From an uncultured Rikenellaceae bacterium (GTDB taxonomy: Bacteria; Bacteroidota; Bacteroidia; Bacteroidales; VadinHA17), in contig CAZXFB010000007.1 in NCBI GenBank assembly GCA_964639725.1, positions 58,177 to 122,176 of the forward strand: a stretch of DNA of 64,000 nt, given 5' to 3'. Below the pieces are notes generated by a model. It had not been told where the DNA came from and did no database searches. It saw nothing but the letters and a program-made list of their open reading frames with translations. Positions 20,283-53,798 of this stretch are shown here, in pieces. Within the stretch, counting starts at the first letter, position 1. The number at the start of each line of letters is the position of its first letter. The position numbers were made by a program, and so were the translations under genes.

Positions 20283-20541
20283 AGTTTATGATATTAATTA
20301 AAATTAGTTTTATAAGATTCAAGATGCATGATTGTAATTATACTAATATTCAAATATAATTTTTTTAATAAAGAGATACAATAACATAATTATAAATTAC
20401 AACCTTTACGTAAATAAAAAAAATATTGAACTTATGAAAGTTTGATTTGAATGAAGTTTGACAGAACTTCAATTTGAAAAAAATAGAATATTGACTATAT
20501 TTCCATTGAGTTTGAATAGCAGAAGTAAAATAATTAAAAGA

Positions 20542-23896: not shown

Positions 23897-23908
23897 ATGA
23901 TTAATGTT

Positions 23909-28228: not shown

Positions 28229-29029
28229 TTACCAGCTTGTCCAACCGCCATCCACTAAAAGGTTATGACCTGTAATATATGCTGATGCCTCTGAAGCCAG
28301 AAAAACTACAGGACCTTTGATATCATTGTCTTCGGTAAATCTTCTTAAGGGAGTCAGCCGGAGGTAATTCTGAATAAATTCTTCCGGTAATTTATTCTTT
28401 CTTATTCCTGGGCCGTATCCTCCGGGGCTGATACAATTTGCCCGGATGTTGAATTTTCCGTAATAATTGGCAATCCATTTTGTAAATCCTACCATTCCCC
28501 ATTTCTCATAAGTATATGTTACAGCGCTGCTCATCCCCGTATCGCCATATACCCTGAAATTTGGACCAACAGCACCCTGAATAGAGCTGATATTGATGAT
28601 ATTCCCATCTTGCTGCTCTACCATTACCTTAAGTACTGCCTGTGTAAGCAGCATCAGTCCGGTGTAGTTGATCTGCTGGGATTTCTCCAGATCTTCTTTG
28701 GTAAGGATATCCAGATCTTTGCATCCTTCGCGGGACACAGCATTATTAACCAGAACATCAATATGCTTAAATCTTTTTACTATTGAATTCGTAAAATCAG
28801 TAATTGATTTTTCACTACCCTGGTCAAGTGCCATTCCCTCCACGTTAAAATTTTTCTTACTCAGTTCTGCTGCATACTCTTTGCATTTTTCCTCGTCCCG
28901 GGAGGCAATAATAACATGAGCTCCTGCCTCAGCGAGAGCCAGAGATATAGGTTTTCCATAGAGACCAGCTCCACCTGTAACGATAACCACTTTCCCGTCT
29001 AACCTGAACATTTCCATAAATTCTTTCAT
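28229..29029 (-). CDS. Short-chain dehydrogenase/reductase (SDR)
   Basis: VVIVTGGAGLYGKPISLALAEAGAHVIIASR (the TGxxxGxG motif), NNAV, and a catalytic S...YxxxK region (SSIQG ... YTYEKWG). Confidence 0.85.
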   Translation of the reverse strand: MKEFMEMFRLDGKVVIVTGGAGLYGKPISLALAEAGAHVIIASRDEEKCKEYAAELSKKNFNVEGMALDQGSEKSITDFTNSIVKRFKHIDVLVNNAVSREGCKDLDILTKEDLEKSQQINYTGLMLLTQAVLKVMVEQQDGNIINISSIQGAVGPNFRVYGDTGMSSAVTYTYEKWGMVGFTKWIANYYGKFNIRANCISPGGYGPGIRKNKLPEEFIQNYLRLTPLRRFTEDNDIKGPVVFLASEASAYITGHNLLVDGGWTSW

Positions 29030-29126: not shown

Positions 29127-31550
29127 TTAAACCCCAGCCAATACCGATATCAGGTAACTACCGGAATTTAGTTTATATCCATTTCTGAAATCTCCATTTT
29201 TTAAATGAACAAATGATTCCTTACCATTCAATTGTCTGATAATGACTTTCTGTTGTCTGCCAATCTGCAATCTGACTGAGGCAATACTTCCTTCAGGAAT
29301 TTTTATTTCGTACTCCTGGTGATTTTTTTCCACAATTCTCCAATTTGAAATTATTTCCCCAAAAGGTGAATTATAAATACATTTTGCATAATCGAGACCA
29401 GGTGGAAGAATAGGTGCGATAATAAATCTCTTAAAGCCAGGATAATCCGGATCAGGACTTATACCTCCAAGACGACTGAAGAACCATTCAGTAACAGAAC
29501 CAAACATAGGATGGCAATTGGAATAGACATTATCACTCTCCTTCCATGTTTCCCACAGAGTTGTTGCTCCTCTGTCAATCATAAAACCCCAACCAGGATA
29601 AGAGGTGTTATTAACAACATTATACACTTCCATTGCATAATTGCTATCTGGAAGTGAATTCAGAATGTTCCTTGTTCCGAAAATGCCAGTAGTGAAGTGT
29701 CCGTGTGGGGTCGCTTTCAAAGCTTTTAAAAGAGAATCTGTGGCTCTACTAATTTCATGATCAGGAATTAAATTATAATATAACAACGTAGAAAAAAGAG
29801 TTTGCCTGTTAACAGGTTCCTGAACCGGTTTTCTCCAGTACATATCAAGTAACAATTCACTTAACTTATCAGTTAATACTGAAAATTTTTCAATATTTGA
29901 TCTGTCATTCATCAATTTGGCAAATCTTATCATTATTCTTGCGCACTCAAGGTAATGGGCTGTTCCAATCAGTTGGACAGGCACTTTTTCAAGCGACTCA
30001 TGATCGCTTAAACCTTTATCCACTATACCTGAAGGGTGTAGCCTTGCGACTTTCTCCATCCATTTAAGATCAAGGTTATACAAGTCTTTTACCAGTTGAG
30101 TGTCATTGTAATAAAGGAGTAGTTTGTATTGTGTAATAAGGAAAGCTGATTCCCAGCTTAAGCCACAATTTTTTATACCGACATATGGAGCTGTATCAAT
30201 AAAAATTGAATCCTGCATTGCATCTACCCAGTCATATACTGTTTTGCGGTAGAATGTTTGCATGTTAAAATTATAAATGAACGATTCACACACTGCATTA
30301 AGGTCGCCTCCATAACCGAATTTTTCCCGACCGGGACAATCAGACTGAACACTTACAAGGTTATTTAAGAATGTTCTTTTTGTCGCCTTCTGAATTGAGT
30401 TAAGGAGTTCAGATGAGCAGGTGAAAGTGTTGATATTTTCAACATTTGAGTTAAGTGCTAATCCCTCTATATCATTTTTATCAGGTTTTTTGGTCAATCC
30501 TGAAATTTCCATATACCTGAATATATGAAAAGTAAACTCCGGACTATACCAAATCTCTCTATTGTTTCCAAATATATAACTATCTGTCTGGCATGCTAAT
30601 GATGGTGATCCTGGCCCTCCCATTCTCTCTCTTTTCAGCTGTCCGGCTACTGTTGTCATTGGATTAAGCATACCATTTTCATAGAGTCTCTCTCCAAAAC
30701 GAAATTTAATAGTATCCCCTGCATTTCCTCTAAGTCTGATTTTATAAAGTCCGGTGAAGTTCACACCCATGTCAACAATATAAACATCTTTACGGGGTGA
30801 TAAAATATTTACAGGTGCTATAATTTCAGTGACCTGAACTGCAGGAAAAAAGGACTTTTGCAATCCGCCGCCGGGTCCATCCATAATTTTTACCTCTTTC
30901 CATTTAGAGTCATCAAAACCTGCTTTGTTCCAACCGGGAATCTCTTTTGCCGCATCAAAAACTTCACCCGTATATATATTGTTTTTAAGAATAGGTCCAT
31001 AAGCAAATTTCCAGGAATTATCTGAGTATATTTCTTCTTCCTTTCCATCAAGATAAACCAGTTTCAGATTAGCTATAAATCTGCTCCTTCCTACCGGAAG
31101 AGCATCACGAAGATTGTATCTTCCCCACATTTTCATCGGCAGAGGATTATAGAATCCGTTACCAGTTGTTACTCCGATACAATTGATACCTGCATGGACA
31201 CTTGATGTAATATCATATTCAGAGTAATAGATCCTTTTACTATAATCAGTCCAGGCAGGATCGAGATAATTTTTACCAGTTTTTTCTCCGTTGACTGATG
31301 CAATGTAATAGCCGGCAGCAGTAATATAAAGAAGAGCCGATTTAATATCCTCTTTTACTGTAAACTCTCTTCTGAACAAAGGTGCAGGGTCGTCTTCGTA
31401 GAACAGTGAGTCGTTAACAGGTGGCACTCTGGTATCGCTAATCCAGGAAGCTTTGCCCAGATCATCTGAGACTGGGACATATACTTTATTATCAGATCTG
31501 CTACAACTGTAACATAAACAAACTAAGAATATGAAAATTAGACGGTTCAT
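29127..31550 (-). CDS. GH78 alpha-L-rhamnosidase
   Basis: PLFRREFTV...ALLYITAAGYYIASVNGEKTGKNYLDPAWTDYSKRIYYSEYDIT matches the GH78 N-terminal domain signature. DCPGREKFGYGGD and TTLWETW are also present. An N-terminal signal peptide is present. Confidence 0.85.
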   Translation of the reverse strand: MNRLIFIFLVCLCYSCSRSDNKVYVPVSDDLGKASWISDTRVPPVNDSLFYEDDPAPLFRREFTVKEDIKSALLYITAAGYYIASVNGEKTGKNYLDPAWTDYSKRIYYSEYDITSSVHAGINCIGVTTGNGFYNPLPMKMWGRYNLRDALPVGRSRFIANLKLVYLDGKEEEIYSDNSWKFAYGPILKNNIYTGEVFDAAKEIPGWNKAGFDDSKWKEVKIMDGPGGGLQKSFFPAVQVTEIIAPVNILSPRKDVYIVDMGVNFTGLYKIRLRGNAGDTIKFRFGERLYENGMLNPMTTVAGQLKRERMGGPGSPSLACQTDSYIFGNNREIWYSPEFTFHIFRYMEISGLTKKPDKNDIEGLALNSNVENINTFTCSSELLNSIQKATKRTFLNNLVSVQSDCPGREKFGYGGDLNAVCESFIYNFNMQTFYRKTVYDWVDAMQDSIFIDTAPYVGIKNCGLSWESAFLITQYKLLLYYNDTQLVKDLYNLDLKWMEKVARLHPSGIVDKGLSDHESLEKVPVQLIGTAHYLECARIMIRFAKLMNDRSNIEKFSVLTDKLSELLLDMYWRKPVQEPVNRQTLFSTLLYYNLIPDHEISRATDSLLKALKATPHGHFTTGIFGTRNILNSLPDSNYAMEVYNVVNNTSYPGWGFMIDRGATTLWETWKESDNVYSNCHPMFGSVTEWFFSRLGGISPDPDYPGFKRFIIAPILPPGLDYAKCIYNSPFGEIISNWRIVEKNHQEYEIKIPEGSIASVRLQIGRQQKVIIRQLNGKESFVHLKNGDFRNGYKLNSGSYLISVLAGV

Positions 31551-31668: not shown

Positions 31669-32601
31669 TCAACTAATATTATTCCCGGCTTTACGTAAAA
31701 TATTGTTAAAATTCTCAAAGAATATTTTTTTCTTCTGACGTTCATTTAATTTTGAAGCCATAATAGTTCCAACACCTTGATAATATGAACCATCTGTGCC
31801 AAAGAATAGTCTGTCCTCACCCAGATATTTAAGAGCAAAATCAATCATATTTCCTTCATTATTACTGCCAGCAGTATCAACATAAATATTCGGGTAATCT
31901 TTTATTGCCTTGCATGCGTATTCCCAGTCACCGCCTCCGCCAGTATGAGCGTACTGAAACATCGCTTCAGGATATCTTTTTGCTGCATCAACAAAGTTTT
32001 CCGGTATTGAACCATTAGGTTGTTTATTTCCATATTTTGTTCGCTGACCGCCAAAACCGAGGGAAGATGCAGCATGCACAAGAATAATCATCCTGAGGTC
32101 GATGAATTTTTCAATTATCGGATAGAATAATGGATCGTTTATTTTGACCTGATTATAAACCTTTAATCCTATCATTCCATGATCAATACATCTTTTTATC
32201 TCTTCAAGGGATTCTTTACTATAAACTGGATTAACAAAACAGCTCCCCAAATACCTTTCAGGATATTGTTTCATTGCCTTGAGTACGCTATCGTTGCACT
32301 TTCTGAATTCTTCAGGGGTTGCGATTGTTCCTGATGCTTCTGATATTGGCCTTGAGATTTCCAGTTTTTCAATTCCCAGTCTGTCAGCATAATCTATCTG
32401 AGATTCAATTGTACCACCAAGACCAACATGCTCATGGGCATCGATCTTCCTGTACTTCATCACCTCTGTCATAATAGTGAAATTTGGAGGTTCTGTCTTA
32501 CCTGTTGTACAAAACTCTGCATGATTATTACCAAGCATAATTCCTGCTGCTGAAAAAGCGCTAACCCTTATAAAGTTTCTCCTATTGGTTATTTTTGTCA
32601 T
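31669..32601 (-). CDS. Tat-leader amidohydrolase-superfamily metal hydrolase (amidohydrolase_2-like)
   Basis: Leader MTKITNRRNFIRVSAFSAAGIML. Motifs IDAHEHVG, ILVHAASS, YAHTGGG and FGTDGSY fit the TIM-barrel metallo-hydrolase pattern. Confidence 0.6.
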   Translation of the reverse strand: MTKITNRRNFIRVSAFSAAGIMLGNNHAEFCTTGKTEPPNFTIMTEVMKYRKIDAHEHVGLGGTIESQIDYADRLGIEKLEISRPISEASGTIATPEEFRKCNDSVLKAMKQYPERYLGSCFVNPVYSKESLEEIKRCIDHGMIGLKVYNQVKINDPLFYPIIEKFIDLRMIILVHAASSLGFGGQRTKYGNKQPNGSIPENFVDAAKRYPEAMFQYAHTGGGGDWEYACKAIKDYPNIYVDTAGSNNEGNMIDFALKYLGEDRLFFGTDGSYYQGVGTIMASKLNERQKKKIFFENFNNILRKAGNNIS

Positions 32602-32792: not shown

Positions 32793-33923
32793 TCAGAACA
32801 ATTCCTGGCAGGGTATTTCAACAAAAACTATCCTTTTATATTCATCCGCCTCATAAAGAAGACCAATATTACCATTTGGTAATTGTGTTAAACATGAATA
32901 GGCCGCACTACCATCATATACTGGAACTTCCTTTTGCCAATTGATTCCTTCATTATTGCTGACACGAACAACAAGATTTTTCCGTAATTTTCTATCAGCG
33001 GGATTTGAGAAAATAAGAAGAGATTTACTGTTAAATTCATAATTAATAAAACTACCCTGACAACCTGATTCAATTAATGCCAAATCATCAGACACTTCAG
33101 ACCATGATTCGCCAAAATCTTCAGTTACAGAAACTTGTCTGTATTCCTCACCTCTAGGCCTTCTCATATTTGCCATAATCCTGCCTCCACTCAAAACCGT
33201 GATCTGAGGTTCAGGATTATAGTCACCAACACCTTTGCTCATTTTCCATGTTTTTCCATGATCATTACTGTAAATTAGAAGTGTCTGTTGAGGCCCTTTA
33301 CCTCCCCTTGTCACAGTATACATTGGAAATACAATAACTCCATTTACATACAATCCGACACCAGGCCCATTCTGAAGCCAGAAATTCTTCCCTTTTGCTA
33401 AATAACTAAGATCAACAGGAGACGACCAAGTGTTTCCATCATCATTACTTTTTATAAGATGAATCCGCAAAATTCTCCCTATGTCACCTTGCGGATCTTC
33501 AACAGCATAGTCATAAGCGAGCCAGATGGTACCTGTTTGTTTATCAACAACCATACTTGGATCACACGCAGCATCATTATCAGGAAAATCAACAATAACC
33601 TTTGCTGCTGACCAGGTTTTCCCTCCATCCGAGCTTCTTTTCATAACAAGATCAATATTATTAGGGGCATCGCCCGGTTTATCCACACGGGCATCGCAAA
33701 CAGCAATTAATCTGCCACTTTTTGTTGTGACAAGCGATGGTATTCTGTACTCATTTACATTATTCTCCCCGCTTACAAATAAATTTTTGCTGAAAAATTT
33801 TTCCTGTGATGCGGCAGGCTCCTGAGAAGTTTCATAACTACTACCATGAATGATGAGAGATAAAGCCGGTATACCTGAGGCAATAATCAGTAAACTGAAA
33901 ATTTGATTTTTCATGATTTCCAA
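32793..33923 (-). CDS. Canonical GH33 exo-alpha-sialidase
   Basis: EYRIPSLVTTKSGRLIAVCDAR is the FRIP motif. Asp-boxes SSDGGKTW, SNDDGNTW, SNDHGKTW, TEDFGESW and SNNEGINW. AAYSCLTQL carries the Tyr nucleophile context. Signal peptide present. Confidence 0.9.
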   Translation of the reverse strand: MEIMKNQIFSLLIIASGIPALSLIIHGSSYETSQEPAASQEKFFSKNLFVSGENNVNEYRIPSLVTTKSGRLIAVCDARVDKPGDAPNNIDLVMKRSSDGGKTWSAAKVIVDFPDNDAACDPSMVVDKQTGTIWLAYDYAVEDPQGDIGRILRIHLIKSNDDGNTWSSPVDLSYLAKGKNFWLQNGPGVGLYVNGVIVFPMYTVTRGGKGPQQTLLIYSNDHGKTWKMSKGVGDYNPEPQITVLSGGRIMANMRRPRGEEYRQVSVTEDFGESWSEVSDDLALIESGCQGSFINYEFNSKSLLIFSNPADRKLRKNLVVRVSNNEGINWQKEVPVYDGSAAYSCLTQLPNGNIGLLYEADEYKRIVFVEIPCQELF

Positions 33924-33965
33924 TATATTTTGTTAAGTTGATAAATTGCATTTAATCAGTGTATT

Positions 33966-33984
33966 ATTCTGATAATATCAGAAT
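33966..33984. promoter_or_regulatory. 8-3-8 palindrome upstream of the GH33 sialidase gene (candidate operator)
   Basis: ATTCTGAT-aat-ATCAGAAT has perfect 8-bp arms. It lies about 43-61 nt upstream of the start codon at 33923, in the 87-nt gap after the Gfo/Idh/MocA gene. Confidence 0.3.
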
Positions 33985-34010
33985 CGAATCTTAAACAGGA
34001 GATTTGATAA

Positions 34011-34934
34011 TTACCTGTTTATAAAAATTGTTCTTCCACCCTGTTCTAGACTCTCTTTCCCTGCTATGAGTGTACGTATTATGTTACTAGTTTTAGCAAA
34101 TTCAAGCCGTGATTTTCCTTCCTCAACAGATCTTATAAATTCAATTATATTGTCACGGAACATTGAATATGAATTTCTGATTTCAACTATTTTCCATCCC
34201 TTCTGGCCAAATAATGAAATCTGAAATGTAGGAGTAATGTCCATGAAAATATTGATTATAACCTGAATCCCGTTATCATATTCGATATAAACAATATCTT
34301 TTTGTTCCCTGCCAATATTTTTAACAGAAACAGGATTAGGATCATCGAGAATTGCAACAACAGCTTCAAGTAAATGTACACCATATTTAATCCAGTCTTT
34401 TTTTCCAGTAGCAGTTACAAGTTCAAGTTTTCCCAGAGTTGCCGCTTCAGTTTTTGCCGTGCGGCACTCATTTGAATAACGCATTGATGAACCTGACATT
34501 ATCAATCTGCCTTTGGCATTTTCTCCTGCAAAATAATCAAGATCCTTCAGTGTAATTGCAAGTGGTTTATCAATAAAAACTGGAATACCTTTATCAATGA
34601 AATGCTTTGCCATCACTACATGGTTTTCAGGATCGTCACGTGTAAGTAAAACAGCATCTACTTTGCCGATCATATCTTCAATATTTCTTGAAATATTTTG
34701 TATACCTGTTGTTCCGGCAATACTCTGAGATATTTTCATATCCTGGGTCCAGACATGAGTAACAATTGCTGAATTTAATCCTATGGTATCCCTGTTAGCA
34801 TCTAGATAGGCAGATACTCCGGGGTACCCAACCTTTGTAATTTCCTCTGCATCATACTGACCGTTTATTATTGCAGCCCATGAATATGGATGAGCATTAC
34901 CCGGACTCATACCAATTATACCAAGCTTTAACAT
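34011..34934 (-). CDS. Gfo/Idh/MocA-like oxidoreductase (cytoplasmic)
   Basis: MLKLGIIGMSPGNAH N-terminus and an FIDKPLA (EKP-like) motif. No leader. The gap to the aldolase gene is 4 nt. Confidence 0.65.
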   Translation of the reverse strand: MLKLGIIGMSPGNAHPYSWAAIINGQYDAEEITKVGYPGVSAYLDANRDTIGLNSAIVTHVWTQDMKISQSIAGTTGIQNISRNIEDMIGKVDAVLLTRDDPENHVVMAKHFIDKGIPVFIDKPLAITLKDLDYFAGENAKGRLIMSGSSMRYSNECRTAKTEAATLGKLELVTATGKKDWIKYGVHLLEAVVAILDDPNPVSVKNIGREQKDIVYIEYDNGIQVIINIFMDITPTFQISLFGQKGWKIVEIRNSYSMFRDNIIEFIRSVEEGKSRLEFAKTSNIIRTLIAGKESLEQGGRTIFINR

Positions 34935-34938
34935 TATC

Positions 34939-35730
34939 TTAATATTTATTTTTTACACAATTTTTAAAAGAGCTCATTAATGTATCACAATATTGGTGTA
35001 ATCCGACAACATCAGCTCCTATATTAATAAATTGATAGCCCATATCAATAAACTCATTAAGTTTTGATATACTCCCTGTTGTTGCAGCAAATTTACCATG
35101 TTTATTGGCTAATTTTGCTACCAGTTTTCGTGTTTCAACCAGGAAGGGATTATTCCAGTCACCCGGAGCACCAATTCCCTGGCTGAAATCACCAGGTCCG
35201 AAAAAGAGCATATCATAACCTTCAAGTGCAGCAATAGCTTCCAGATCCTCAAGTGGTTCAGGGTCCTCAATCTGTAATACAACAAACCGCTGTTCATTAG
35301 CCTGTTTAAGATATTCATTAAAATCGAGACCCGTGTAGAATCCGTCTGCATTACCTCCATCTACAGGACGACGGCCTACTGGATGAAACCTGGTCATATT
35401 AACAACCCTTTTTGCATCTTCAAGATTCATAATATGAGGTACTAAAATACCTGTTGCATCCATTTCAAGCGGCTTGATATAATCGCTGTAACCTCCGCGA
35501 GGAATACGAACCATAACATCAACATTGTGAGCTTTTGCTGCCCAGTTCTGAGCATTAAGTATATCCCAGTCACCAGACTGATGCTCCCTGTCGATCCAGA
35601 TACAGTCAAATCCTTTTCGTCCAACTAGATCGACAGCCTGTCCGTCGCAAAAGTTTACTTTAAAACAATTCACAATTTCTCCTGCTCTCAGTTTTTTTAA
35701 AACCCTGCTTTCTCTCATTCTTATTACCAT
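34939..35730 (-). CDS. HpcH/HpaI-family class II (metal-dependent) 2-keto-3-deoxy-acid aldolase
   Basis: GFDCIWIDREH, VMVRIPRG, GILVPHIMNLEDAKRVV, FHPVGRR and LQIEDPEPLEDLEAIAALEGYDMLFFGPGDF. Confidence 0.8.
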   Translation of the reverse strand: MVIRMRESRVLKKLRAGEIVNCFKVNFCDGQAVDLVGRKGFDCIWIDREHQSGDWDILNAQNWAAKAHNVDVMVRIPRGGYSDYIKPLEMDATGILVPHIMNLEDAKRVVNMTRFHPVGRRPVDGGNADGFYTGLDFNEYLKQANEQRFVVLQIEDPEPLEDLEAIAALEGYDMLFFGPGDFSQGIGAPGDWNNPFLVETRKLVAKLANKHGKFAATTGSISKLNEFIDMGYQFINIGADVVGLHQYCDTLMSSFKNCVKNKY

Positions 35731-35773
35731 AATTGTATACTTATTAAGTTAACCCTCTTTAATGTGACATGTT

Positions 35774-36877
35774 TCAATATTGGCCATATTCCTCAACAAT
35801 ATCATAAACCAGTTTTATTCTTTTTAATTCTGTTCCCGGAGGTACCTGATCGCCTGCTGATTGCACCAGACGGCTGTTTATTTTTTTCAGATCAAGCCAC
35901 TCTATGACATGTGATATAAATTTCCTTTCATTTGTTGAAGGCAGCCACATAACCGGTGAAATACCTCCCATCAAGATCATGTTGTTACCTGCCTGTTGTC
36001 TTATCTCCAGAGGAGTTAAGTCGCCGGTAGGTTTAGGGGTACAAGCATCAGCAACATCAATCCCTGCCTCAGCAGTAATTCCAATTATTCCGCTTAGCAT
36101 TCCATCGATATGAGTTGATACAGTCTTTCCAGCTTTATGAAAATGTTCAGCAATATCTTTATAATGGTCAAAGCTGTATTTCCTGAATATATCTGGTGAT
36201 TGAACATCGCCCGATAAATTATCAGTGAAAATGATGTGCGGAGCTGGTGATTTGCAATAAAGGGCTACAAGTTCAAGATGCATTTTATTATAGGTACTAA
36301 TATACCTTTCCATTAGTTCAGGATATTCATACAGAGCATAAATTGTATTCTGAACACCCATATAATACGACATTAGTGAACCCAGTCCGGTATATCCAAG
36401 ACTTGGAAATCCTAGACCGACATCGCCTCCAATCAGTTCAATCATCTGCCAGTTATCATACCGGGGTATAAATCTTCTCCGCTCAATTGCATATAACAGG
36501 ATTTGGAGGTCCTTCATGTTTTCTACCATCAGTTTTGCAATGTCCCACGAAAAGCTTACCGGGCTCCATTTTCTTTCCATATAAATCTCACCAATGGGTG
36601 TAATAAATCTTTCAATGGCGCGATCACCTGTCAATTCCCTTTCCCTTACTACATTATCTTCATAAAATTCATCATGCAAACTTCCCACTTCTACATACCA
36701 CCCTGACCTGACCTCCCTGTGAAGGTCAGCTATCTCCTTGGTGCAATTACTAATATTAAATAAGTTCCACTGTTGTCCGCTCTCGGCTCTGAACCAGTGT
36801 CCCAGGTCAGCAAACCATGGAACCCTGTCGGGAGTTTCTCCTTTAAGAACTTTTATCAACCTTTCTCTTTCAGTCAT
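35774..36877 (-). CDS. Uroporphyrinogen-decarboxylase (URO-D)-like family protein
   Basis: N-terminus ERLIKVLKGETPDRVPWF is typical of the URO-D/MtaA-like family. The length is about 367 aa with no leader. The assignment rests on motif resemblance only. Confidence 0.5.
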   Translation of the reverse strand: MTERERLIKVLKGETPDRVPWFADLGHWFRAESGQQWNLFNISNCTKEIADLHREVRSGWYVEVGSLHDEFYEDNVVRERELTGDRAIERFITPIGEIYMERKWSPVSFSWDIAKLMVENMKDLQILLYAIERRRFIPRYDNWQMIELIGGDVGLGFPSLGYTGLGSLMSYYMGVQNTIYALYEYPELMERYISTYNKMHLELVALYCKSPAPHIIFTDNLSGDVQSPDIFRKYSFDHYKDIAEHFHKAGKTVSTHIDGMLSGIIGITAEAGIDVADACTPKPTGDLTPLEIRQQAGNNMILMGGISPVMWLPSTNERKFISHVIEWLDLKKINSRLVQSAGDQVPPGTELKRIKLVYDIVEEYGQY

Positions 36878-36999: not shown

Positions 37000-38325
37000 C
37001 TATCCGAATAACCTGTTAGATTTGCTCCAATGGATCCTTGCAATAAATATGCTTCCATCACTACCATATTTTTCTACCCCTTTAGGTTGCATCCATTCAG
37101 AAGTAGTAACCCAGGTTTCGTCCCTGCTAACATCTGTTACTCCGAAGTTACCCTGTTGTGCTCCCCTGTTAGGTGTTAATGCAATTTCAGTACTGCGGAT
37201 TATACATAACCTGTCAGTATCAACCTGAGCCATAAAAAGAGGAGCCCTGTTTCTGGCAACATGATCATTATTTGCACCTCGCCGTGTATAAACAAGGAAA
37301 AGAGCATCACTGTGAGTGACCCAATGTGCCTGAGTATTATAACTTCCAAGATCAGAATTATCATCAAACTTCCATGATTGTATCGGATCAAAGTTTAATC
37401 CATCCTTACTCCTTGTAACAAACGCTTTTTTATCATTTCGAATTGTCAGAAAAAACTCGTTATTGAATTTTGAAAGTGAAGGTTCATGAAGACCCCTGGT
37501 TTCATCATCAATCTTCAATTCATTGCTATGAGAGAGGTAATGCAGAATTTTTCCATCAAATTTACACCGGAGAACTGTAACTCTTGAGTTTTTACCTAAC
37601 GGTACATAGTATACAGGCAGAAGTATTGTACCATCTTTTTCATCGAATCGTTGTACACATCCGGCACCAGAATCGTGAAATATACCTGTATCCGGCATTT
37701 TAAGTTTCTGCCATTCAGCCCATTCATCTGTATCAGAGTTATAAATAGAAAATGTCGTATCCCGCGGGCGTTTGGCTCCGGGAGTCATAACTTTCCAATC
37801 TTGTGTGTAAGCTACCGTGTGCCCTGTGCCCAGAAGTGTCTTTGTTGCAGCATGCCATTTTGGCCAAAAATCACTTGCTGCAACCGGACGTTGAACACCA
37901 TCAATCACCTCCCAGCGATAGGTCATATTCTTAAGTTCCCCAGGTGTGGTCCATGACTTTCCAAGGTCATCGGTCTTCATTGAAAACATACCCTTGAAAA
38001 CATCACTCCCGGTTAGCTCAGCGGTATTCATCGTCATAATAATTTGAGGTAACCCATTTTTTCCTGCTCCCGGAATAATTCCTGCACGAGGATGTGCCCA
38101 ACATCTTTGACCATCAAACAGTTTAGCGGGTATGTCAAGAGACAGGTTAAAACCCGGTTTACGCTGTTTTACAGATTCATCGGACTGGAACATTCTTCCT
38201 GCTGTCAGTGGCAGAGATAATAATGAAATGCCACTGACAAGAGATTTCTTTATAAAACTACGTCTCTCTATATTAGTATGACCTGAATTTATTTTATTAT
38301 TCCTTTTCATATCAATATTGTTCAT
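37000..38325 (-). CDS. Asp-box beta-propeller protein (family C, Tat-leader copy)
   Basis: Leader ...NIERRSFIKKSLVSGISLLSLPLTAG and motif TDDLGKSWTTP. The C-terminal half parallels 15844-17103. The longest ORF starts at 38373 but overlaps the upstream gene by 32 nt, so Met at 38325 or 38310 is more likely. Confidence 0.65.
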   Translation of the reverse strand: MNNIDMKRNNKINSGHTNIERRSFIKKSLVSGISLLSLPLTAGRMFQSDESVKQRKPGFNLSLDIPAKLFDGQRCWAHPRAGIIPGAGKNGLPQIIMTMNTAELTGSDVFKGMFSMKTDDLGKSWTTPGELKNMTYRWEVIDGVQRPVAASDFWPKWHAATKTLLGTGHTVAYTQDWKVMTPGAKRPRDTTFSIYNSDTDEWAEWQKLKMPDTGIFHDSGAGCVQRFDEKDGTILLPVYYVPLGKNSRVTVLRCKFDGKILHYLSHSNELKIDDETRGLHEPSLSKFNNEFFLTIRNDKKAFVTRSKDGLNFDPIQSWKFDDNSDLGSYNTQAHWVTHSDALFLVYTRRGANNDHVARNRAPLFMAQVDTDRLCIIRSTEIALTPNRGAQQGNFGVTDVSRDETWVTTSEWMQPKGVEKYGSDGSIFIARIHWSKSNRLFG

Positions 38326-38341
38326 AATAAGATCCAAAACA

Positions 38342-39769
38342 TTATTTAAACCTGATAGAGTATAAATCTGCATCCTTCATATAAATACGCAACCGTACAG
38401 GCTTATTTGCCAGTTTTTTTAAACTTTTATTATCTTTCCAGGAGGCAATACCGGCTATCTCATTGCCAACAAGTGATTTTGATTCACTAAAAGAAAAACC
38501 CGTAAATGGCTGACCATTAATATCCTGAATCTCAATCTTAATCTCTCCGGCTACAGAAGTAGAATAGTTTAATTCAAGTTCATCACCTGAAAAAGTAAAT
38601 TGTTTTGTAATCAATTCACCTCCAGTATAAGATGCATTCAAAGAAGTAAAACCGTCGAGCCGCATAGAATAGCGATGAAGATGGGCTGTTGGCTGTGCAT
38701 AATCCTGGTTAACATAGAGAGACATCTCTTCCGGTCCTGTCTGAACAATATTAAGACAAGGATAATTTGTACGTGCTGACCAGTTATTCAAACCTATTCC
38801 TGGGCGAATGAACGACTCCATAAATGTCCGCTCATATCTATTCCCTCCCCGAGTAGTCATAATATACGCATCTGACAATCCTTTGAATTGTGTAGGATCA
38901 ACTTTTAATTTTTTAAGTTGCTCCTCTGTCATTATCTGCCTGTCAGGAATAAATCTAGCACCAATGGAAAGATAAATCTGAGGAGCCCTGAAATAAGGGC
39001 TTGTCTGTTGGGTATAAAGATGCTCAGTTGGAGTATCACCATATGTCATCACAACTGGCTCAGACCAATTGAGAAAGTCTTTGGATGTACTCCTGCTGAT
39101 TCCACGAAATCGTTTATCAGAAAAAATGCGGAAATAACAAACATAGAGTTTTTCACTTTCTGACCAGAAAGAAACGTTTTGAGAATCAAAAGCACCTTTT
39201 CTTATAACTCCTTCATCTTTAATCTTTCTCCAGTGAATACCATCGGGCGAAACAAATGGAATCAAACCCGTTTTTGAATTTCCCCCAAAAGCTTTATATT
39301 TCTGATCAGATGTTATGTCAGGATTGGAATCCAAAAAAGGAGAGAAATTATGGGTTACCGGTTCCGTTAAGAGCACTACATTATTCTGCATTGACCCCTT
39401 AACTTCATTCAGATCCAATATTGGTTTCACCCATTTGATACCATCATCCGACTCGGCATAACATGTTAGCTGTGGACCTGAAATCTCATCCATCCCACGA
39501 TAATAGAGTCGAAATATATCTTTATCCTTTATTATGGTACTGTAAGTACAAAATTTACCCTCCCACGGTTTATCAAAATAAACAACAGCTCCTTCGTCAT
39601 GTGGATGGTGCATAACAATCTTTATGCCTTCAAGTTTATCAATAATATAATAGTCGGTAAAGATCTCCCTGTTATAACCTAACCGGATGATCTCATTTCT
39701 GCCAGTTTGGGCAGACTCTTTAAAACCGGATAATGCAATAAGAATTATTAAAAAGAAGAACTTACTCAT
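38342..39769 (-). CDS. Secreted beta-propeller-like putative glycoside hydrolase, family not identified (family B)
   Basis: Signal peptide present. Paralog of 9382-10995, sharing YRGMD/YRMYY, YAESDDGIKW, SPDGIHW, FDSQNVSFW, HLYTQQTSPYFRAP, RLDGFTS and NKPVRLRIYMKDADLYSIRFK. Confidence 0.55.
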   Translation of the reverse strand: MSKFFFLIILIALSGFKESAQTGRNEIIRLGYNREIFTDYYIIDKLEGIKIVMHHPHDEGAVVYFDKPWEGKFCTYSTIIKDKDIFRLYYRGMDEISGPQLTCYAESDDGIKWVKPILDLNEVKGSMQNNVVLLTEPVTHNFSPFLDSNPDITSDQKYKAFGGNSKTGLIPFVSPDGIHWRKIKDEGVIRKGAFDSQNVSFWSESEKLYVCYFRIFSDKRFRGISRSTSKDFLNWSEPVVMTYGDTPTEHLYTQQTSPYFRAPQIYLSIGARFIPDRQIMTEEQLKKLKVDPTQFKGLSDAYIMTTRGGNRYERTFMESFIRPGIGLNNWSARTNYPCLNIVQTGPEEMSLYVNQDYAQPTAHLHRYSMRLDGFTSLNASYTGGELITKQFTFSGDELELNYSTSVAGEIKIEIQDINGQPFTGFSFSESKSLVGNEIAGIASWKDNKSLKKLANKPVRLRIYMKDADLYSIRFK

Positions 39770-39870: not shown

Positions 39871-40713
39871 TCAATGATCTCCCTCATAATATTCACCTCC
39901 GCAAACTGAAGAATTAACATCATAAATTGAGAGTTCCTTAAACATCAGACGTGCAATCTGGGAATGCCCATTCCCATTTGGATGAAGTGGATCATTTAAC
40001 CAATCCTTATAAACATTAATTGTTGCACTATTTTGAAATGTATCCTGCCAATGGTAATAATTATCAATAAGAATTAGTTTCTCTTTTTCAGCAACCTTCC
40101 TGATTACAGATACATAGTCAGGTAATTTTGTTCTTTCAGGAGATTTTCTGAATATTATCAGGTTTGGAGTATGAAGTATAGGTACCGCTTTCATATCCCT
40201 TATAGCATTAACCAGCAGAATAAGGTTCTTTTCAAATAGTTCAATCTGAATCCTTTCTTTTGAACAATCATTGGTCCCTATCATCAGAGACACAACGTTT
40301 GGCTTGAACTGTTTAATCCTCCACTCCAAATCATCAAGAATAGTTTGAGTTGTATTACCACTAATACCTGTATTGATAATGATATCCCGCATCCTGGACA
40401 ATTCCCACCTGATACGTTCTGCAAAGATCTCAGGATAAGAACGATATCCTTGTGTATGTTTTGCCCCATGGGTTATACTGTCACCTGTAAATAACCAAAT
40501 GATCGGATCTTTTAGTTTTAAGTGACCCGAGATCCATTCATGATCCGGAAGTTCCTTTCCGGATGCAACATTTCTATCATATACTCTTATTTTACTATTG
40601 CCTGCTGCAATCCGTTGAGATTTTGCTGAAAGAGCAAAAGTGAAGGTTGAAAAGTATAAAGATTTCTCAAAGAATCTTCTTCTGGAAATTCTGATCTCTT
40701 TCATACCACTCAT
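39871..40713 (-). CDS. SGNH/GDSL-family esterase with an RR leader (candidate sugar O-acetylesterase)
   Basis: Leader ISRRRFFEKSLYFSTFTFALSA. Block I is LFTGDSITHG, block III is GTND and block V is DPLHPNGNGH. Confidence 0.75.
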   Translation of the reverse strand: MSGMKEIRISRRRFFEKSLYFSTFTFALSAKSQRIAAGNSKIRVYDRNVASGKELPDHEWISGHLKLKDPIIWLFTGDSITHGAKHTQGYRSYPEIFAERIRWELSRMRDIIINTGISGNTTQTILDDLEWRIKQFKPNVVSLMIGTNDCSKERIQIELFEKNLILLVNAIRDMKAVPILHTPNLIIFRKSPERTKLPDYVSVIRKVAEKEKLILIDNYYHWQDTFQNSATINVYKDWLNDPLHPNGNGHSQIARLMFKELSIYDVNSSVCGGEYYEGDH

Positions 40714-41920: not shown

Positions 41921-43012
41921 CTATTTATATATCCAGTCTAGGTCCATTCTTACCAGAGTCGATCCCCAGTGAAACCAGTCTGAGTAGCATAATAATACAT
42001 AATTATCAATAAAATGGAGAGCAGGATAGCAATAGACACCATCTGGTTTGTCGGCAAGGACCTTATTTTTCATCCATGTTTTCCCATCATCTTTTGAAAC
42101 AGCAATATTTAATGGGGTTCGTTTCTGGTTGAGTCCATTATCATTCCATACCATAAGCAGATCGCCCGTTGAAGGGATTCTTGTTATAATCGCAGGGGAA
42201 CAGGGAGATTTAATGTTGCTGGGTTCAACAGCACTCCATGTTTCGCCTTTATCCTTAGAATAAGAGAAATATTGAACTCCGGCAGTTGTACGTATATACA
42301 TAAGTATTTCACCATTATTTAACTCTACCATACCAGGCTCCTGTGTAACAATGGCAGCTGGATTTTCTACTTCCTTACTTGCTTTCCAGTTTCGACCATT
42401 ATCATCAGAATAATAACTCCACAAACGTCCCACTGCAGCAGCTTTTGTTTCACCCGGGCTCTGATGCATTGCAACAGCTAATAAAAGCCGGCCACTTTTA
42501 AGTTGAATTACGCGATTATTATTTAGCACAAAATAAGCTGCTTTATCTGTTATACAGGGTAAAGGATCACTCCATGTTTTAGCTTCATCATTCGATAAAC
42601 GTATTAATGGAATACAATCTGTTTCAGAATTCTTTTTAAGATAGAACAAGGCTATTTCACCATTCTGTAACCTCAGTAGTGAGACTGACATGACATTCAT
42701 AGTTCCTTCCTGCCCGACAATTTTCACATCCTCTTCTGACCATGTTTTACCTTTATCGTCTGAGTATCTTCCTGCCAGAAAGGCACTTGCATTATCATCC
42801 ATTGAAGTACCGGTATAATGGCTATAAATAAAAAGAATTCTGCCATCCTTCAAAGTGATAAAGTCACCTTCACTATTTCGCGGATTATCAGCAACAGGGA
42901 GAAGCTTAAGTACATCTTCCATTCCCTGAGCTACTTCATTACTCTTACTGGCAGACCTGTTCCCGCAACCATAACCTATTAGTATTAACAAACAGAGAGC
43001 TGATATTTTCAT
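41921..43012 (-). CDS. Sialidase-like glycosidase, family A (lipoprotein), tandem copy 4
   Basis: DNPRNSEGDFITLKDGRILFIYSHYTG, SDDKGKTW, GTMNVMSVSLLRLQNGEIALFYL, CITDK, TRIPSTGDL, QKRTPL, SKDDGKTW and YCYPALHF. I chose Met at 43012 (MKISALCLLILIGYGC). The longest ORF reaches 43084. Confidence 0.8.
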   Translation of the reverse strand: MKISALCLLILIGYGCGNRSASKSNEVAQGMEDVLKLLPVADNPRNSEGDFITLKDGRILFIYSHYTGTSMDDNASAFLAGRYSDDKGKTWSEEDVKIVGQEGTMNVMSVSLLRLQNGEIALFYLKKNSETDCIPLIRLSNDEAKTWSDPLPCITDKAAYFVLNNNRVIQLKSGRLLLAVAMHQSPGETKAAAVGRLWSYYSDDNGRNWKASKEVENPAAIVTQEPGMVELNNGEILMYIRTTAGVQYFSYSKDKGETWSAVEPSNIKSPCSPAIITRIPSTGDLLMVWNDNGLNQKRTPLNIAVSKDDGKTWMKNKVLADKPDGVYCYPALHFIDNYVLLCYSDWFHWGSTLVRMDLDWIYK

Positions 43013-43099
43013 AATATCAGAGAAATGAATACAGGCATCAATATGTGCTGTTCCTGGTTCGCAAATGGCAGAGATCTTTTTCATTTTCTTCTATTTATT

Positions 43100-44200
43100 T
43101 TAATTATAAATCCAATCAAGACTTATTCTAGCTACGTCCAAAACTGCCCAATTTTTCCCTTTAGATGTGCTGCCGGCAGTATAGCCCAATAAAACATTAT
43201 CCCCGGTAAAATGAATTGCAGTATAGCAATAACGCCCTTCAGGATTCTCTTCAATACTTTTAATATTATTCCATGTGATTCCTTCATCTCTTGAAATGGC
43301 AATTTTTAATGGAGAACGTATCTGGTTTAAACCATTGTCATCCCAAACCAGAAGTAAATCACCGGTAGAGGGTATTCTTGCTATTGATGCAGGAGCAACC
43401 GGAGAATTTATTTTACTTCTTTCTGAAGGACTCCAGGATTCTCCTTTATCTTTTGAATAGGATATATACTGTACTCCCGCATTAGTGCGTATTAACATAA
43501 ATATATCACCATTTTTCAGCTCAACCAGAGCCGGTTCCTGAGTCAGTACATTATCCGGATTAGGGACTTCAGCACTGGACCTCCAGCTTCGACCATTATC
43601 ATCAGAATAGTAACCCCACAGACGATCTGTATAGAGTTTTGATTCTTCTGAAACAGCAAAAAGAATCCGTCCGTTACTTAATTGGATAACATGATTATTG
43701 TGAAGGCAAAAGTAACCTTTCTTATCAGTGATGCATGGTCTGGGATCGCCCCAGCTAACAGCTTCATCATCTGATATTCTAATAATGGGAATACAGTCTG
43801 TTTCAGAATTTTTCCTTAAATAAAACAACGCTATTTCGCCATTTTGTAACCTGAGAAGTGATACAGACATTACATTCATTGTACCTTCCTGGTCAACAAT
43901 TTTCTTATCATCGGTGGTCCAGCTTTTACCCTGGTCACTTGAGTATCTCCCAGCCAGGTATGCATTCGCATTGTCATTATCTGAAGAACCAGTATATCTG
44001 GTAAAAACAAATAATAACCTTCCATCCTTAAGAGTAATAAAGTCACCCTCACTATTTCGTGGATTATCAAGACCTGACTCGAGTCTGAGAACAATCTCCT
44101 TTCCACTTGCTGAACTTTTATTTTCTCCCTGTCTTGTCTTACACCCTGAATTGATAAGTATTAATATTAAAATAACAAATATCTTAATCACTCCTGCCAT
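43100..44200 (-). CDS. Sialidase-like glycosidase, family A (lipoprotein), tandem copy 3
   Basis: DNPRNSEGDFITLKDGRLLFVFTRYTG, SSDQGKSW, GTMNVMSVSLLRLQNGEIALFYL, CITDK, ARIPSTGDL, SRDEGITW and YCYTAIHF. I chose Met at 44200 (MAGVIKIFVILILILINSGC). The longest ORF reaches 44251. Confidence 0.8.
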   Translation of the reverse strand: MAGVIKIFVILILILINSGCKTRQGENKSSASGKEIVLRLESGLDNPRNSEGDFITLKDGRLLFVFTRYTGSSDNDNANAYLAGRYSSDQGKSWTTDDKKIVDQEGTMNVMSVSLLRLQNGEIALFYLRKNSETDCIPIIRISDDEAVSWGDPRPCITDKKGYFCLHNNHVIQLSNGRILFAVSEESKLYTDRLWGYYSDDNGRSWRSSAEVPNPDNVLTQEPALVELKNGDIFMLIRTNAGVQYISYSKDKGESWSPSERSKINSPVAPASIARIPSTGDLLLVWDDNGLNQIRSPLKIAISRDEGITWNNIKSIEENPEGRYCYTAIHFTGDNVLLGYTAGSTSKGKNWAVLDVARISLDWIYN

Positions 44201-44267
44201 TTTAAATATTACAAATGTGTTTGATTTGCGGTTTATTAATAAGTTTGGCATTTTACAAATAAATCAA

Positions 44268-45356
44268 TTATTTATATATCCAGTCTATGCTTATTTTTTT
44301 TACGGTAACTCCTGTTGCTGTCCAGTCGAAATAGCCTAAAAGGAGATCATTACCGGTAAAATGAATTGCGCTGTAGCAATATGACCCTTGGGGATCATTT
44401 TCAAGAATCTTATTATTAATCCAGGTTTTTCCATCATCTTTAGAAATCGCCAGATTAAGAGGAGTTCTGTTCTGATCCACACCATTATCATTCCAAACAA
44501 CAAGAATATCTCCAGTTGACGGAATTCTTGCCATTGATGCAGGAGAGCAGGGTGATTTAAGTGAACTGGGTTCAACCTGGCTCCATGTTTCTCCTTTATC
44601 TTTTGAATATGAGAAATACTGAACCCCTGCAGTAGTCCGGAGAAACATCAGGATATCACCATTTTTTAATTCAATTAAGCCAGGTTCCTGAGTGATAATC
44701 TGGCCTGGATTTGGGACTTCAGAACTAGACTTCCATGTCCTTCCATTATCATCTGAATAATAATTCCAGATCCGGCCTATTCTATAAAAGGTTTTATCAC
44801 CGGGGATTCCATGCATTGCAACAGCAAGCATAAGTCTGCCGTTCTTTAATTGGATCACCCTGTTATTATTAAGTACAAAATAACCCTCTTTATCAGTTAT
44901 ACATCTTGAAGGTTCACTCCAGGTTTTTGCTTCATCGGTTGAAATCCTTATCATCGGGATACAATCAGTAGTAGAATTCTTCTTCAGGTAGAAGAATGCT
45001 ATCTCACCATTTTGTAACCTGAGGAGAGAGACTGACATAACATTCATTGTTCCTTCCTTGTCAAGAATTTTCGTATCAGCCGTTGTCCAGGTCTTTCCAT
45101 TATCGGATGAATATCTTCCTGCAAGAAAGGCACTGGCATGATCATCATTTGAAGTTCCTGTGTAATGGGAGTATACATATAGAATTCTACCATCCTTCAG
45201 GGTAATAAAGTCACCCTCGCTATTACGGGGATTGTCAGGGCCTGTTGTGAGTTTAAGCACATCCTCAACTCCAGAGCTCTCGCTTTTGATTCCGGCAGGT
45301 TTATTACGGCAACTTCCGCTGATTACAATAAGGAAACAGAGTGCCAATATTTTCAT
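44268..45356 (-). CDS. Sialidase-like glycosidase, family A (lipoprotein), tandem copy 2
   Basis: DNPRNSEGDFITLKDGRILYVYSHYTG, SSDNGKTW, GTMNVMSVSLLRLQNGEIAFFYL, CITDK, ARIPSTGDI, SKDDGKTW and YCYSAIHF. I chose Met at 45356 (MKILALCFLIVISGSC). The longest ORF reaches 45446. Confidence 0.8.
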   Translation of the reverse strand: MKILALCFLIVISGSCRNKPAGIKSESSGVEDVLKLTTGPDNPRNSEGDFITLKDGRILYVYSHYTGTSNDDHASAFLAGRYSSDNGKTWTTADTKILDKEGTMNVMSVSLLRLQNGEIAFFYLKKNSTTDCIPMIRISTDEAKTWSEPSRCITDKEGYFVLNNNRVIQLKNGRLMLAVAMHGIPGDKTFYRIGRIWNYYSDDNGRTWKSSSEVPNPGQIITQEPGLIELKNGDILMFLRTTAGVQYFSYSKDKGETWSQVEPSSLKSPCSPASMARIPSTGDILVVWNDNGVDQNRTPLNLAISKDDGKTWINNKILENDPQGSYCYSAIHFTGNDLLLGYFDWTATGVTVKKISIDWIYK

Positions 45357-45525
45357 AAAAACAGATGGATGAATAAGAGTGGCAATCTTGAACATGTTAT
45401 TAAGGTTTTTTAAATTCATTTTATTCGATTTAAAGTTAATAATCAAAGAATCCTAGTTCGTACCCGGAATATTGCTTAATGACAGTAAGTGATTACCCTG
45501 CTCACTGCTCCCAACTTACTATTCA

Positions 45526-48360: not shown

Positions 48361-48413
48361 AATTTTTATATTAATGATTTATTTATTGCGATATATCAGT
48401 GTGTTTCCAACAA

Positions 48414-53681: not shown

Positions 53682-53798
53682 TTTAAGATATTTTAATTTA
53701 TAAATATTACATGATATTTGTTTAACTGACATTTCAAATTATTTTTTAAATGTAGTATATCTGTATAAATCAAAAATATTTATTTTAATTAAATATTG

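Follow-up and report, generated by a model that had tools for sequence, protein, structure and literature searches.

Among the described systems, the nearest to the locus studied here are the sialic acid utilization (nan) loci of the phylum Bacteroidota, which contain a NanH sialidase, a class I lyase (NanL or NanA), a NanE-II epimerase, RokA, the major facilitator superfamily (MFS) transporter NanZ and the SusC/D-like uptake pair NanOU (PMC8461474, PMC3969230). We have analyzed a stretch of 64,000 nucleotides (the window hereafter) from an uncultured Rikenellaceae bacterium (assembly GCA_964639725.1, contig CAZXFB010000007.1), in which a sialidase gene lies next to a gene for a class II aldolase of the HpcH/HpaI family. 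The locus shares with the nan loci the exported sialidase-fold glycosidases, the uptake of the SusC/SusD type, a putative MFS importer of acidic sugars, an esterase and a cytoplasmic aldolase that, as predicted here, releases pyruvate. The differences are in the catabolic enzymes. The nan lyase is a class I, Schiff-base enzyme of the dihydrodipicolinate synthase (DHDPS) family, whereas the aldolase found here is a metal-dependent class II enzyme. There is neither an epimerase nor a ROK kinase, the aldolase is followed by two or three NAD(P) oxidoreductases, and its partners with the sialidase fold (Pfam BNR_2) are mostly non-canonical. What we describe is a widespread locus that resembles those for sialic acid utilization and is built around a class II aldolase. 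We infer its key chemical step, and the aldolase and the oxidoreductases probably serve, by a route not described so far, to degrade a sugar acid akin to the sialic acids.

Single parts of the locus resemble other described systems. The aldolases HpaI, GarL and YfaU/RhmA cleave 4-hydroxy-2-keto acids to pyruvate and an aldehyde, and they share with the studied aldolase the fold and the invariant His, Arg, Glu and Asp. These enzymes belong to aromatic, glucarate and rhamnonate operons, whereas the context here is a polysaccharide utilization locus with sialidase-fold genes. A Gfo/Idh/MocA oxidoreductase and an MFS transporter serve for 2,7-anhydro-Neu5Ac in Ruminococcus gnavus (NanOx) and Escherichia coli (YjhC and YjhB) (PMC8461474). 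The likeness is that such an enzyme and an MFS transporter are coupled to sialidase products, but the Gfo protein studied here is about 50 residues shorter than YjhC, has no detectable sequence similarity to it and is always beside the aldolase. Besides sialic acids, sialidase-fold enzymes are known to release 3-deoxy-D-manno-octulosonic acid (Kdo), as KdhAB does (PMC3573668). This Kdo hydrolase (KdhAB/KdoH), with its sialidase-like catalytic subunit, remodels the lipopolysaccharide (LPS) of its own cell and is not catabolic. We have found nothing in the literature that links HpcH aldolases with sialidases, nor any catabolic pathway for pseudaminic acid, legionaminic acid or other bacterial nonulosonates. 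The Kdo aldolase (EC 4.1.2.23), which converts Kdo into pyruvate and D-arabinose, is known biochemically and is a gene orphan. According to a preprint of March 2026, Bacteroides thetaiotaomicron secretes the Kdo released from rhamnogalacturonan-II, with no Kdo pathway confirmed in other gut microbes.

The block under study is formed by four genes on the minus strand. In the order of transcription they code for a URO-D-like protein (35774-36877, 367 aa), which opens the catabolic block, the HpcH/HpaI aldolase (34939-35730, 263 aa), a Gfo/Idh/MocA oxidoreductase (34011-34934, 307 aa) and a GH33 sialidase with BNR_2/BNR_3 matches (32793-33923, 376 aa). The first three have no signal peptide and are predicted to be cytoplasmic, while the sialidase carries one. 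The spacers measure 43 nt between the URO-D-like gene and the aldolase, 4 nt between the aldolase and the Gfo gene and 87 nt between the latter and the sialidase. A preliminary description of this DNA had given the same order and the first two gaps, and both agree with the open reading frame (ORF) coordinates and the Pfam matches. It had also called the three upstream genes leaderless, which we could not support: the four genes belong to a series with one common orientation, the URO-D-like gene has an intergenic stretch of 122 nt before it, and scans of the locus for promoters, terminators and the Bacteroidota -7 motif gave matches at or below chance. The absence of NanA-, NanK- and NanE-type genes from the window was confirmed. 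Pfam searches of the ORFs of at least 150 aa found no member of the DHDPS/NanA (PF00701), ROK/NanK, NanE or GlcNAc-2-epimerase families, and a DHDPS hidden Markov model had no match in the six-frame translation of the 64 kb.

The aldolase matched Pfam HpcH_HpaI (PF03328) over residues 36-241 with 70.3 bits (cut-off 25). All 14 homologs compared have its H50, R75, E155 and D181 unchanged, and the structures 3qz6 and 4tv5 carry the same residues at the aligned positions; we take the HpaI counterparts of these four to be H45, R70, E149 and D175, i.e., the catalytic His and Arg and the metal-binding carboxylates. YfaU was found among the structural relatives. The Pfam match and the four invariant residues are those expected of the HpcH/HpaI class II assignment made in the preliminary description, and the protein is predicted to be a bona fide metal-dependent enzyme of this class. 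When compared with the equivalog models of NCBIfam it reached 113.8 bits for HpaI (cut-off 368.8), 103.4 for GarL (393) and 75.3 for RhmA (441), with a fourth score of 101.7 (406.75). Since these values are far below the cut-offs of 369-441, the aldolase is no ortholog of HpaI, GarL or RhmA and is placed in a distinct subfamily. Its homologs number in the thousands; the best 120 are 67-100% identical and belong to the Bacteroidales, Marinilabiliales, Cytophagales and Sphingobacteriales. Scanning one genome per species, we found encoded relatives (63-85% identity) in at least 563 species, a lower bound, the best 80 of them being 62-83% identical.

The conservation of the gene neighborhood was studied by three routes: tblastn, clustering of the ORFs of genome loci anchored on the aldolase, and Pfam calls on individual contigs. 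All three gave the same recurrent order, a transporter of the MFS or of the sodium:solute symporter family (SSF), HpcH, an aldo-keto reductase (AKR), the 307-aa type of Gfo protein (Gfo307) and a short-chain dehydrogenase/reductase (SDR). Frequencies were obtained from 50 aldolase-anchored loci of at least 15 kb, and BNR_2 and DHDPS-like genes were counted within 10 kb. The AKR was present in 44 of the 50 loci, the SDR in 42, the MFS or SSF transporter in 37 and Gfo307, following the aldolase, in 36. BNR_2 genes of any kind were found in 33 loci, SusC/SusD in 16, an SGNH esterase in 14, DHDPS-like genes in 13 and GH78 or GH106 in 2. As many as 59 of the 63 BNR_2 ORFs were on the same strand as the aldolase (p = 1.4e-13). 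This data indicate that the linkage of the class II aldolase to sialidase-fold genes is conserved and no local accident.

Among the loci with context the closest relative is L090, where the aldolase is 81% identical and the order is URO-D, HpcH, Gfo, SDR, MFS, AraC and SusC/SusD. Its SusC and SusD are 67% and 59% identical to the window pair at 46882-51641. The shared order and these identities indicate that the window contains the same locus, rearranged: the GH33, Amidohydro_2 and GH78 genes are inserted between Gfo and SDR, and the MFS gene is 20 kb away. None of the three inserted families (GH33, amidohydrolase, GH78) is found in the L090 operon, so that the adjacency of a canonical GH33 gene to the aldolase is lineage-specific. 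The link between aldolase and sialidase that had been noted before thus recurs at the level of the sialidase fold, but not as proximity to a canonical sialidase. The MFS gene (13289-14578, minus strand) is flanked by BNR_2 genes, and its product is 56% identical to the L090 transporter and 50-60% identical to the MFS proteins encoded directly before the aldolase in 30 of the 50 loci. Its best NCBIfam model is TIGR00893, the D-galactonate transporter subfamily (122 bits, cut-off 395), which presumably also includes glucarate transporters. Against NanT models it scored 29-30 bits, and it is 55% identical to the MFS protein that in L003 lies beside nanL/nanE-type genes. The SDR (28229-29029, minus strand) shares 64-74% identity with the enzyme encoded after Gfo in L012 and L019, and only 40% with the commoner operon type; from these identities it is probably the operon SDR, displaced by the three-gene insertion. 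Its identification as a ManNAc (N-acetylmannosamine) dehydrogenase was considered and dropped, as it shows no particular likeness to such enzymes and its best solved matches are generic SDRs of the FabG type.

Other genes travel often with the operon. One common addition consists of a NagA-type deacetylase (242 bits, cut-off 225.65), a weak NagB-like protein, a ceramidase-like protein and an FGGY kinase; another of RidA, two dehydrogenases of the 3HCDH family, a class III aminotransferase, an M19 peptidase and a ceramidase-like protein, often together with a PhyH dioxygenase. Counted over the 50 loci, the genes for nitrogen processing near the operon were the ceramidase-like (27), the M19 peptidase (18), the class III aminotransferase (17), RidA (17), NagB-like (10) and NagA (7). 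From the amidases, deacetylases and aminotransferases one might suspect that many of the loci deal with N-acylated amino ulosonic acids. In seven of them a fusion of 770 aa between Amidohydro_2 and a class III aminotransferase is found beside the operon (L001:13623-15935 and relatives), and we know of no described function for it. In 23 of the 50 loci there is a HEAT-like family, an exported HEAT-repeat protein (about 320 aa) that goes with the transporter; some genomes have it joined to the N-terminal end of the SSF transporter in a single protein (L001:7561-9990). This design recalls the NanM-transporter fusions known from the uptake of sialic acids, though the fused domain is another one; a SiaF-type NanM-SSF fusion was discarded since the N-terminal domain of the L001 transporter is HEAT-like and not NanM.

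On the side of the extracellular enzymes, the sialidase at 32793-33923 gave 108 bits with BNR_2 and 92 bits with BNR_3 in Pfam. It has YRIP at residue 59, the segments RRPRG and RKLRK, the nucleophile Tyr of AAYSC, EPQ and five Asp-boxes (SxDxGxTW). Its best solved relatives are sialidases of Bacteroides and Tannerella (E about 1e-48, down to 2e-48), and it lacks the N-terminal carbohydrate-binding domain that these relatives have. With the YRIP motif, the further arginines, the Tyr, the five Asp-boxes and the matches to solved sialidases, the label of canonical sialidase given to it before is well justified, and a canonical GH33 exo-sialidase catalytic domain is predicted. As for its start, the ATG at 33914 (MKNQIF..., with a normal signal peptide) is more likely than the TTG at 33923 chosen by the ORF finder.

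The window contains about 13 further BNR_2 paralogs, and the gene at 32793-33923 is the only one of all of them with YRIP. In seven paralogs YRIP is replaced by the signature PRNSE...QEPG...RT...KRTPL...CY, and two paralogs carry SRQAYFPS. By signature match the PRNSE type is found at 3783-4856, 8073-9251, 14674-15822 and in four tandem genes on the minus strand at 41921-46683 that encode lipoproteins. These PRNSE-type paralogs are an expanded, non-canonical GH33-like subfamily. Orthologs of the protein encoded at 45526-46683 (59-65% identical) are located near the aldolase in L004, L022 and L069, and in L004 and L069 they adjoin DHDPS-like genes. Across the loci the commonest BNR_2 partner, present in 23 of the 50, is an exported protein of about 400 aa (BNR400) encoded upstream of the transporter and the aldolase. 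It is the ortholog of Dfer_1899 of Dyadobacter fermentans (PDB 5HX0), with 889 bits to the copy of D. jiangsuensis. We have found no literature on Dfer_1899, whose structure is a structural-genomics entry without assigned function. Its relatives in the window (12136-13245 and 6208-7464) are only about 25% identical. The first of these has no signal peptide, is directly downstream of the MFS gene and has 5HX0 as nearest structure (E = 5e-8); a cytoplasmic sialidase-fold protein, as predicted here, is unusual.

We propose that the URO-D-like, HpcH and Gfo genes, with the displaced SDR and the MFS transporter, are the cytoplasmic arm of a type of polysaccharide utilization locus found throughout the Bacteroidota, and that the aldolase cleaves an imported 3-deoxy-2-ulosonic acid of the Kdo, Kdn or nonulosonate type. 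We would give this reading a probability of about 0.45. Exported BNR_2 exo-glycosidases and SGNH/GDSL esterases would trim a glycan taken up via SusC/SusD, releasing a 3-deoxy-2-ulosonic acid, i.e., a sugar resembling the sialic acids, for instance Kdo, Kdn or a nonulosonate with N-acyl groups. The MFS transporter of the anionic sugar type (SSF in some genomes) would import this acid, and the class II aldolase, dependent on a divalent metal, would split the C3-C4 bond of its open-chain 4-hydroxy-2-keto form into pyruvate and an aldose. This aldose would then be processed by NAD(P)-dependent redox reactions of the Gfo/Idh/MocA protein, the SDR and, in most genomes, the AKR. The strongest argument comes from minimal operons such as that of L064, a self-contained set of BNR400, MFS, HpcH, AKR, Gfo307 and SDR with genes on the opposite strand at both sides. 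No dehydratase, deaminase or kinase is found in this operon, and therefore the substrate of the aldolase should already be a 4-hydroxy-2-keto acid, or a compound reachable from the imported one by redox alone. The best model of the transporter, an anionic sugar (D-galactonate) subfamily, is also consistent with an imported acid, though the score is below its cut-off. The close conservation of the aldolase family, its invariant catalytic residues, the recurrent gene order with linkage to BNR_2 genes, the release of Kdo by KdhAB and the lack of a class I lyase in the window speak for the proposal too.

Several observations weigh against this proposal. The Dfer_1899 family, the usual BNR_2 partner, lacks YRIP and has no assigned substrate. 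In some loci of the Larkinella type the aldolase is accompanied by AKR, SDR and an aminotransferase, but the 10 kb around it contain neither a transporter nor a BNR_2 gene. For a simple lyase route leading to mannose or ManNAc, three oxidoreductases are more than would be required. The DHDPS-type class I lyases of 13 of the 50 loci could be the true ulosonate lyases there, and in L003 a complete nanL/nanE-type set is right beside the operon. For this reason the idea of the preliminary description that the aldolase stands in the place of NanA may hold for the window, where no class I lyase was found, and does not hold for the loci in general. Besides, the search for a lyase covered the 64-kb window, and a nan cluster may be present elsewhere in the source genome. 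The same class I lyases are the starting point of the main rival to direct ulosonate cleavage, in which the HpcH aldolase acts late and which we consider rather unlikely. The ulosonic acid would be cleaved by a lyase of the DHDPS/NanA type, whose gene is close to the operon in some genomes and would lie in another region of the source genome; the hexose or aminohexose would be oxidized by Gfo or SDR to an aldonic acid and deacylated or deaminated to a 2-keto-3-deoxy-aldonate, which HpcH would split into pyruvate and a C3 aldehyde to be reduced by the AKR. The nitrogen-processing genes that travel with the operon fit such a scheme, as do a D-Ser-dehydratase-like gene directly upstream of the aldolase in L005 and the dehydratases of the enolase type in five of the 50 loci. 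However, neither in the minimal operons (L064, L067 and L090) nor in the window is there a dehydratase or deaminase beside the aldolase, in 37 of the 50 loci the 10 kb around the aldolase are free of DHDPS-like genes, and the transporter directly before the aldolase best matches a subfamily for acid sugars.

Two other explanations do without an ulosonic acid as substrate of the aldolase. It is improbable, in our opinion, that the imported compound is an uronate-derived 4-deoxy-5-keto acid or an aldaric acid, oxidized by a dehydrogenase to keto-deoxy-glucarate or -galactarate and cleaved in the manner of GarL to pyruvate and tartronate semialdehyde, the latter being reduced to glycerate, with the BNR_2 proteins acting on other sugars. 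The better scores of the GarL and HpaI models (dicarboxylic keto-deoxy acids) over RhmA would agree with this, and so would the D-galactonate model of the transporter and an operon made of aldolase and oxidoreductases alone. But all the equivalog scores are far below the cut-offs, the conserved partners are sialidase-fold proteins, and neither the window nor the neighbor genes annotated to family were found to include a polysaccharide lyase, GH88 or GH105. The preliminary description had offered as alternative the non-phosphorylative catabolism of L-rhamnose, linked to the nearby GH78. The SDR would be the rhamnose dehydrogenase, the Amidohydro_2 protein the lactonase and HpcH the aldolase for keto-deoxy-rhamnonate. 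There is indeed a GH78 alpha-L-rhamnosidase near the aldolase (29127-31550, minus strand), a lipoprotein with all four GH78 domains in Pfam, the SDR and Amidohydro_2 (31669-32601, minus strand, 60.9 bits) genes are close by, and YfaU is a structural relative of the aldolase. This pathway is nevertheless very improbable, because rhamnosidases (GH78 or GH106) are near the aldolase in only 2 of the 50 loci. The aldolase reaches only 75 of the 441 bits required by the RhmA model, and neither an enolase-superfamily nor an IlvD-type rhamnonate dehydratase is among the Pfam matches of the window. The N-terminus of the Amidohydro_2 protein (NRRNFIR) is a twin-arginine signal and predicts a periplasmic location, while the aldolase is cytoplasmic; in the aldolase-anchored loci this protein has no ortholog. 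The GH33, Amidohydro_2 and GH78 genes are also those missing from L090, and a GH78 gene beside the operon is found in just one of the 50 long loci. We considered as well a rhamnogalacturonan-II locus, since GH78 and a possible Kdo hydrolase fit side chain C. Pfam found no other plant-pectin-degrading family in the window, and this polysaccharide was kept only as a possible source of substrate.

The URO-D-like protein matched Pfam URO-D with 67.7 bits (cut-off 23.9) over residues 167-364, i.e., only its C-terminal half. In its AlphaFold2 (AF2) model (pLDDT 94.7), residues 59-115 form an additional beta domain, and the top folds found by Foldseek were the MtaA methyltransferase (4ay7/4ay8) and UROD, with TM values of about 0.57-0.67 and E = 1e-9 to 2e-11. 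The corrinoid methyltransferases MtaA and CmuA have a zinc site with Cys ligands (His-x-Cys...Cys). In an alignment of 36 sequences of the URO-D-like family there was no Cys among the columns that were invariant or conserved at 90% or more, which rules out that the protein is a zinc methyltransferase of the MtaA type, and its scores with the MtaA/CmuA models of NCBIfam were 24-34 bits (cut-offs 235-400). The gene (74-83% identity) is directly upstream of the aldolase in eight loci (L004, L009, L011, L012, L019, L079, L082 and L090). The two genes go together only in some lineages, most of them anaerobic, and elsewhere the URO-D-like gene has unrelated contexts; outside the Bacteroidota, in Clostridia and Elusimicrobiota, its contexts were uninformative.

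The Gfo protein matched Pfam GFO_IDH_MocA with 34.7 bits (cut-off 24) in the N-terminal domain only, and 3cea was its sole sequence match to solved structures (E = 0.0026). The top folds for its AF2 model (pLDDT 91) were inositol dehydrogenases, GenD2/KanD2 and TM0414 (TM 0.72-0.80). GenD2 and KanD2 are aminoglycoside sugar dehydrogenases. K123, in the motif DKP, does not vary in the family, nor do D180, Y184 and H187 of the C-terminal domain, and from the model these 307 aa are predicted to be a short, divergent NAD(P) oxidoreductase of the Gfo/Idh/MocA type. A role like that of NanOx found no specific support, as there was no sequence match to YjhC or RgNanOx and YjhC ranked only 44 among the structural neighbors, no closer than generic members of the family.

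The rest of the window corresponds to one or two polysaccharide utilization loci of Bacteroidota, with SusC/SusD, about 14 BNR_2 genes, esterase, MFS transporter and AraC regulator. At the head of the locus is the SusC (48414-51641) and SusD (46882-48360) pair, both on the minus strand, and divergent from SusC the AraC-family regulator (51909-52778, plus strand). A second SusD is found at the right edge, beyond which only further SusC/SusD genes were seen. The GDSL/SGNH esterase (39871-40713, minus strand) has a twin-arginine signal and is a candidate O-acyl esterase. The region 37000-39769 has two ORFs, of 457 and 475 aa, without Pfam match and with 32 nt in common. A twin-arginine motif (ERRSFIKKS) is found inside the first, whose translation therefore probably begins downstream of the start assigned to it. 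In 13 of the 50 aldolase loci a homolog of the second, with 41-67% identity, comes after SusD, and this family may be surface glycan-binding proteins.

Four sugar aminotransferases of the DegT/DnrJ/EryC1 family, at 20458-21894 (plus strand) and at 57674-59053, 59078-60448 and 60479-61843 (minus strand), have twin-arginine signals and are thus predicted to be periplasmic pyridoxal phosphate (PLP) enzymes, in polysaccharide utilization loci. Upstream of the last three, past the edge of the window, two SusC/SusD pairs and a BT_3987-like protein were found (L089). The regions 22970-25180, 18355-19266 and 52878-53732 code for a Gfo/Idh/MocA protein and a xylose-isomerase-like TIM-barrel, both exported by the twin-arginine translocation (TAT) pathway, and two 3-keto-disaccharide hydrolases, a set that we assume fits an oxidative (3-keto) cleavage of glycosides.

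Ulosonic acids such as Kdo, Kdn, Dha and the bacterial nonulosonates occur in the envelope of every Gram negative bacterium, in many capsules and flagella, in plant pectin and in algal walls. To our knowledge, only the route for Neu5Ac via a class I lyase is understood among them. A tentative and rather doubtful extension of our proposal is that this HpcH subfamily would be the missing lyase for the non-sialic ulosonic acids, i.e., the orphan Kdo aldolase (EC 4.1.2.23) or a lyase for Dha or for di-N-acyl nonulosonates of the pseudaminic and legionaminic type. Together with the BNR_2 glycosidases of the Dfer_1899 and PRNSE types it would form a route, extended over the whole phylum Bacteroidota, that recycles such sugars from LPS, capsules, algal scales and rhamnogalacturonan-II. 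If true, a function would be assigned to the solved, unannotated structure 5HX0. If instead the aldolase acts at a late step, the locus still points to an undescribed oxidative route for amino sugars. The operon, conserved in at least 563 species of Bacteroidota and combining a class II aldolase with sialidase-fold enzymes, provides testable candidate genes for this gap in ulosonate catabolism.

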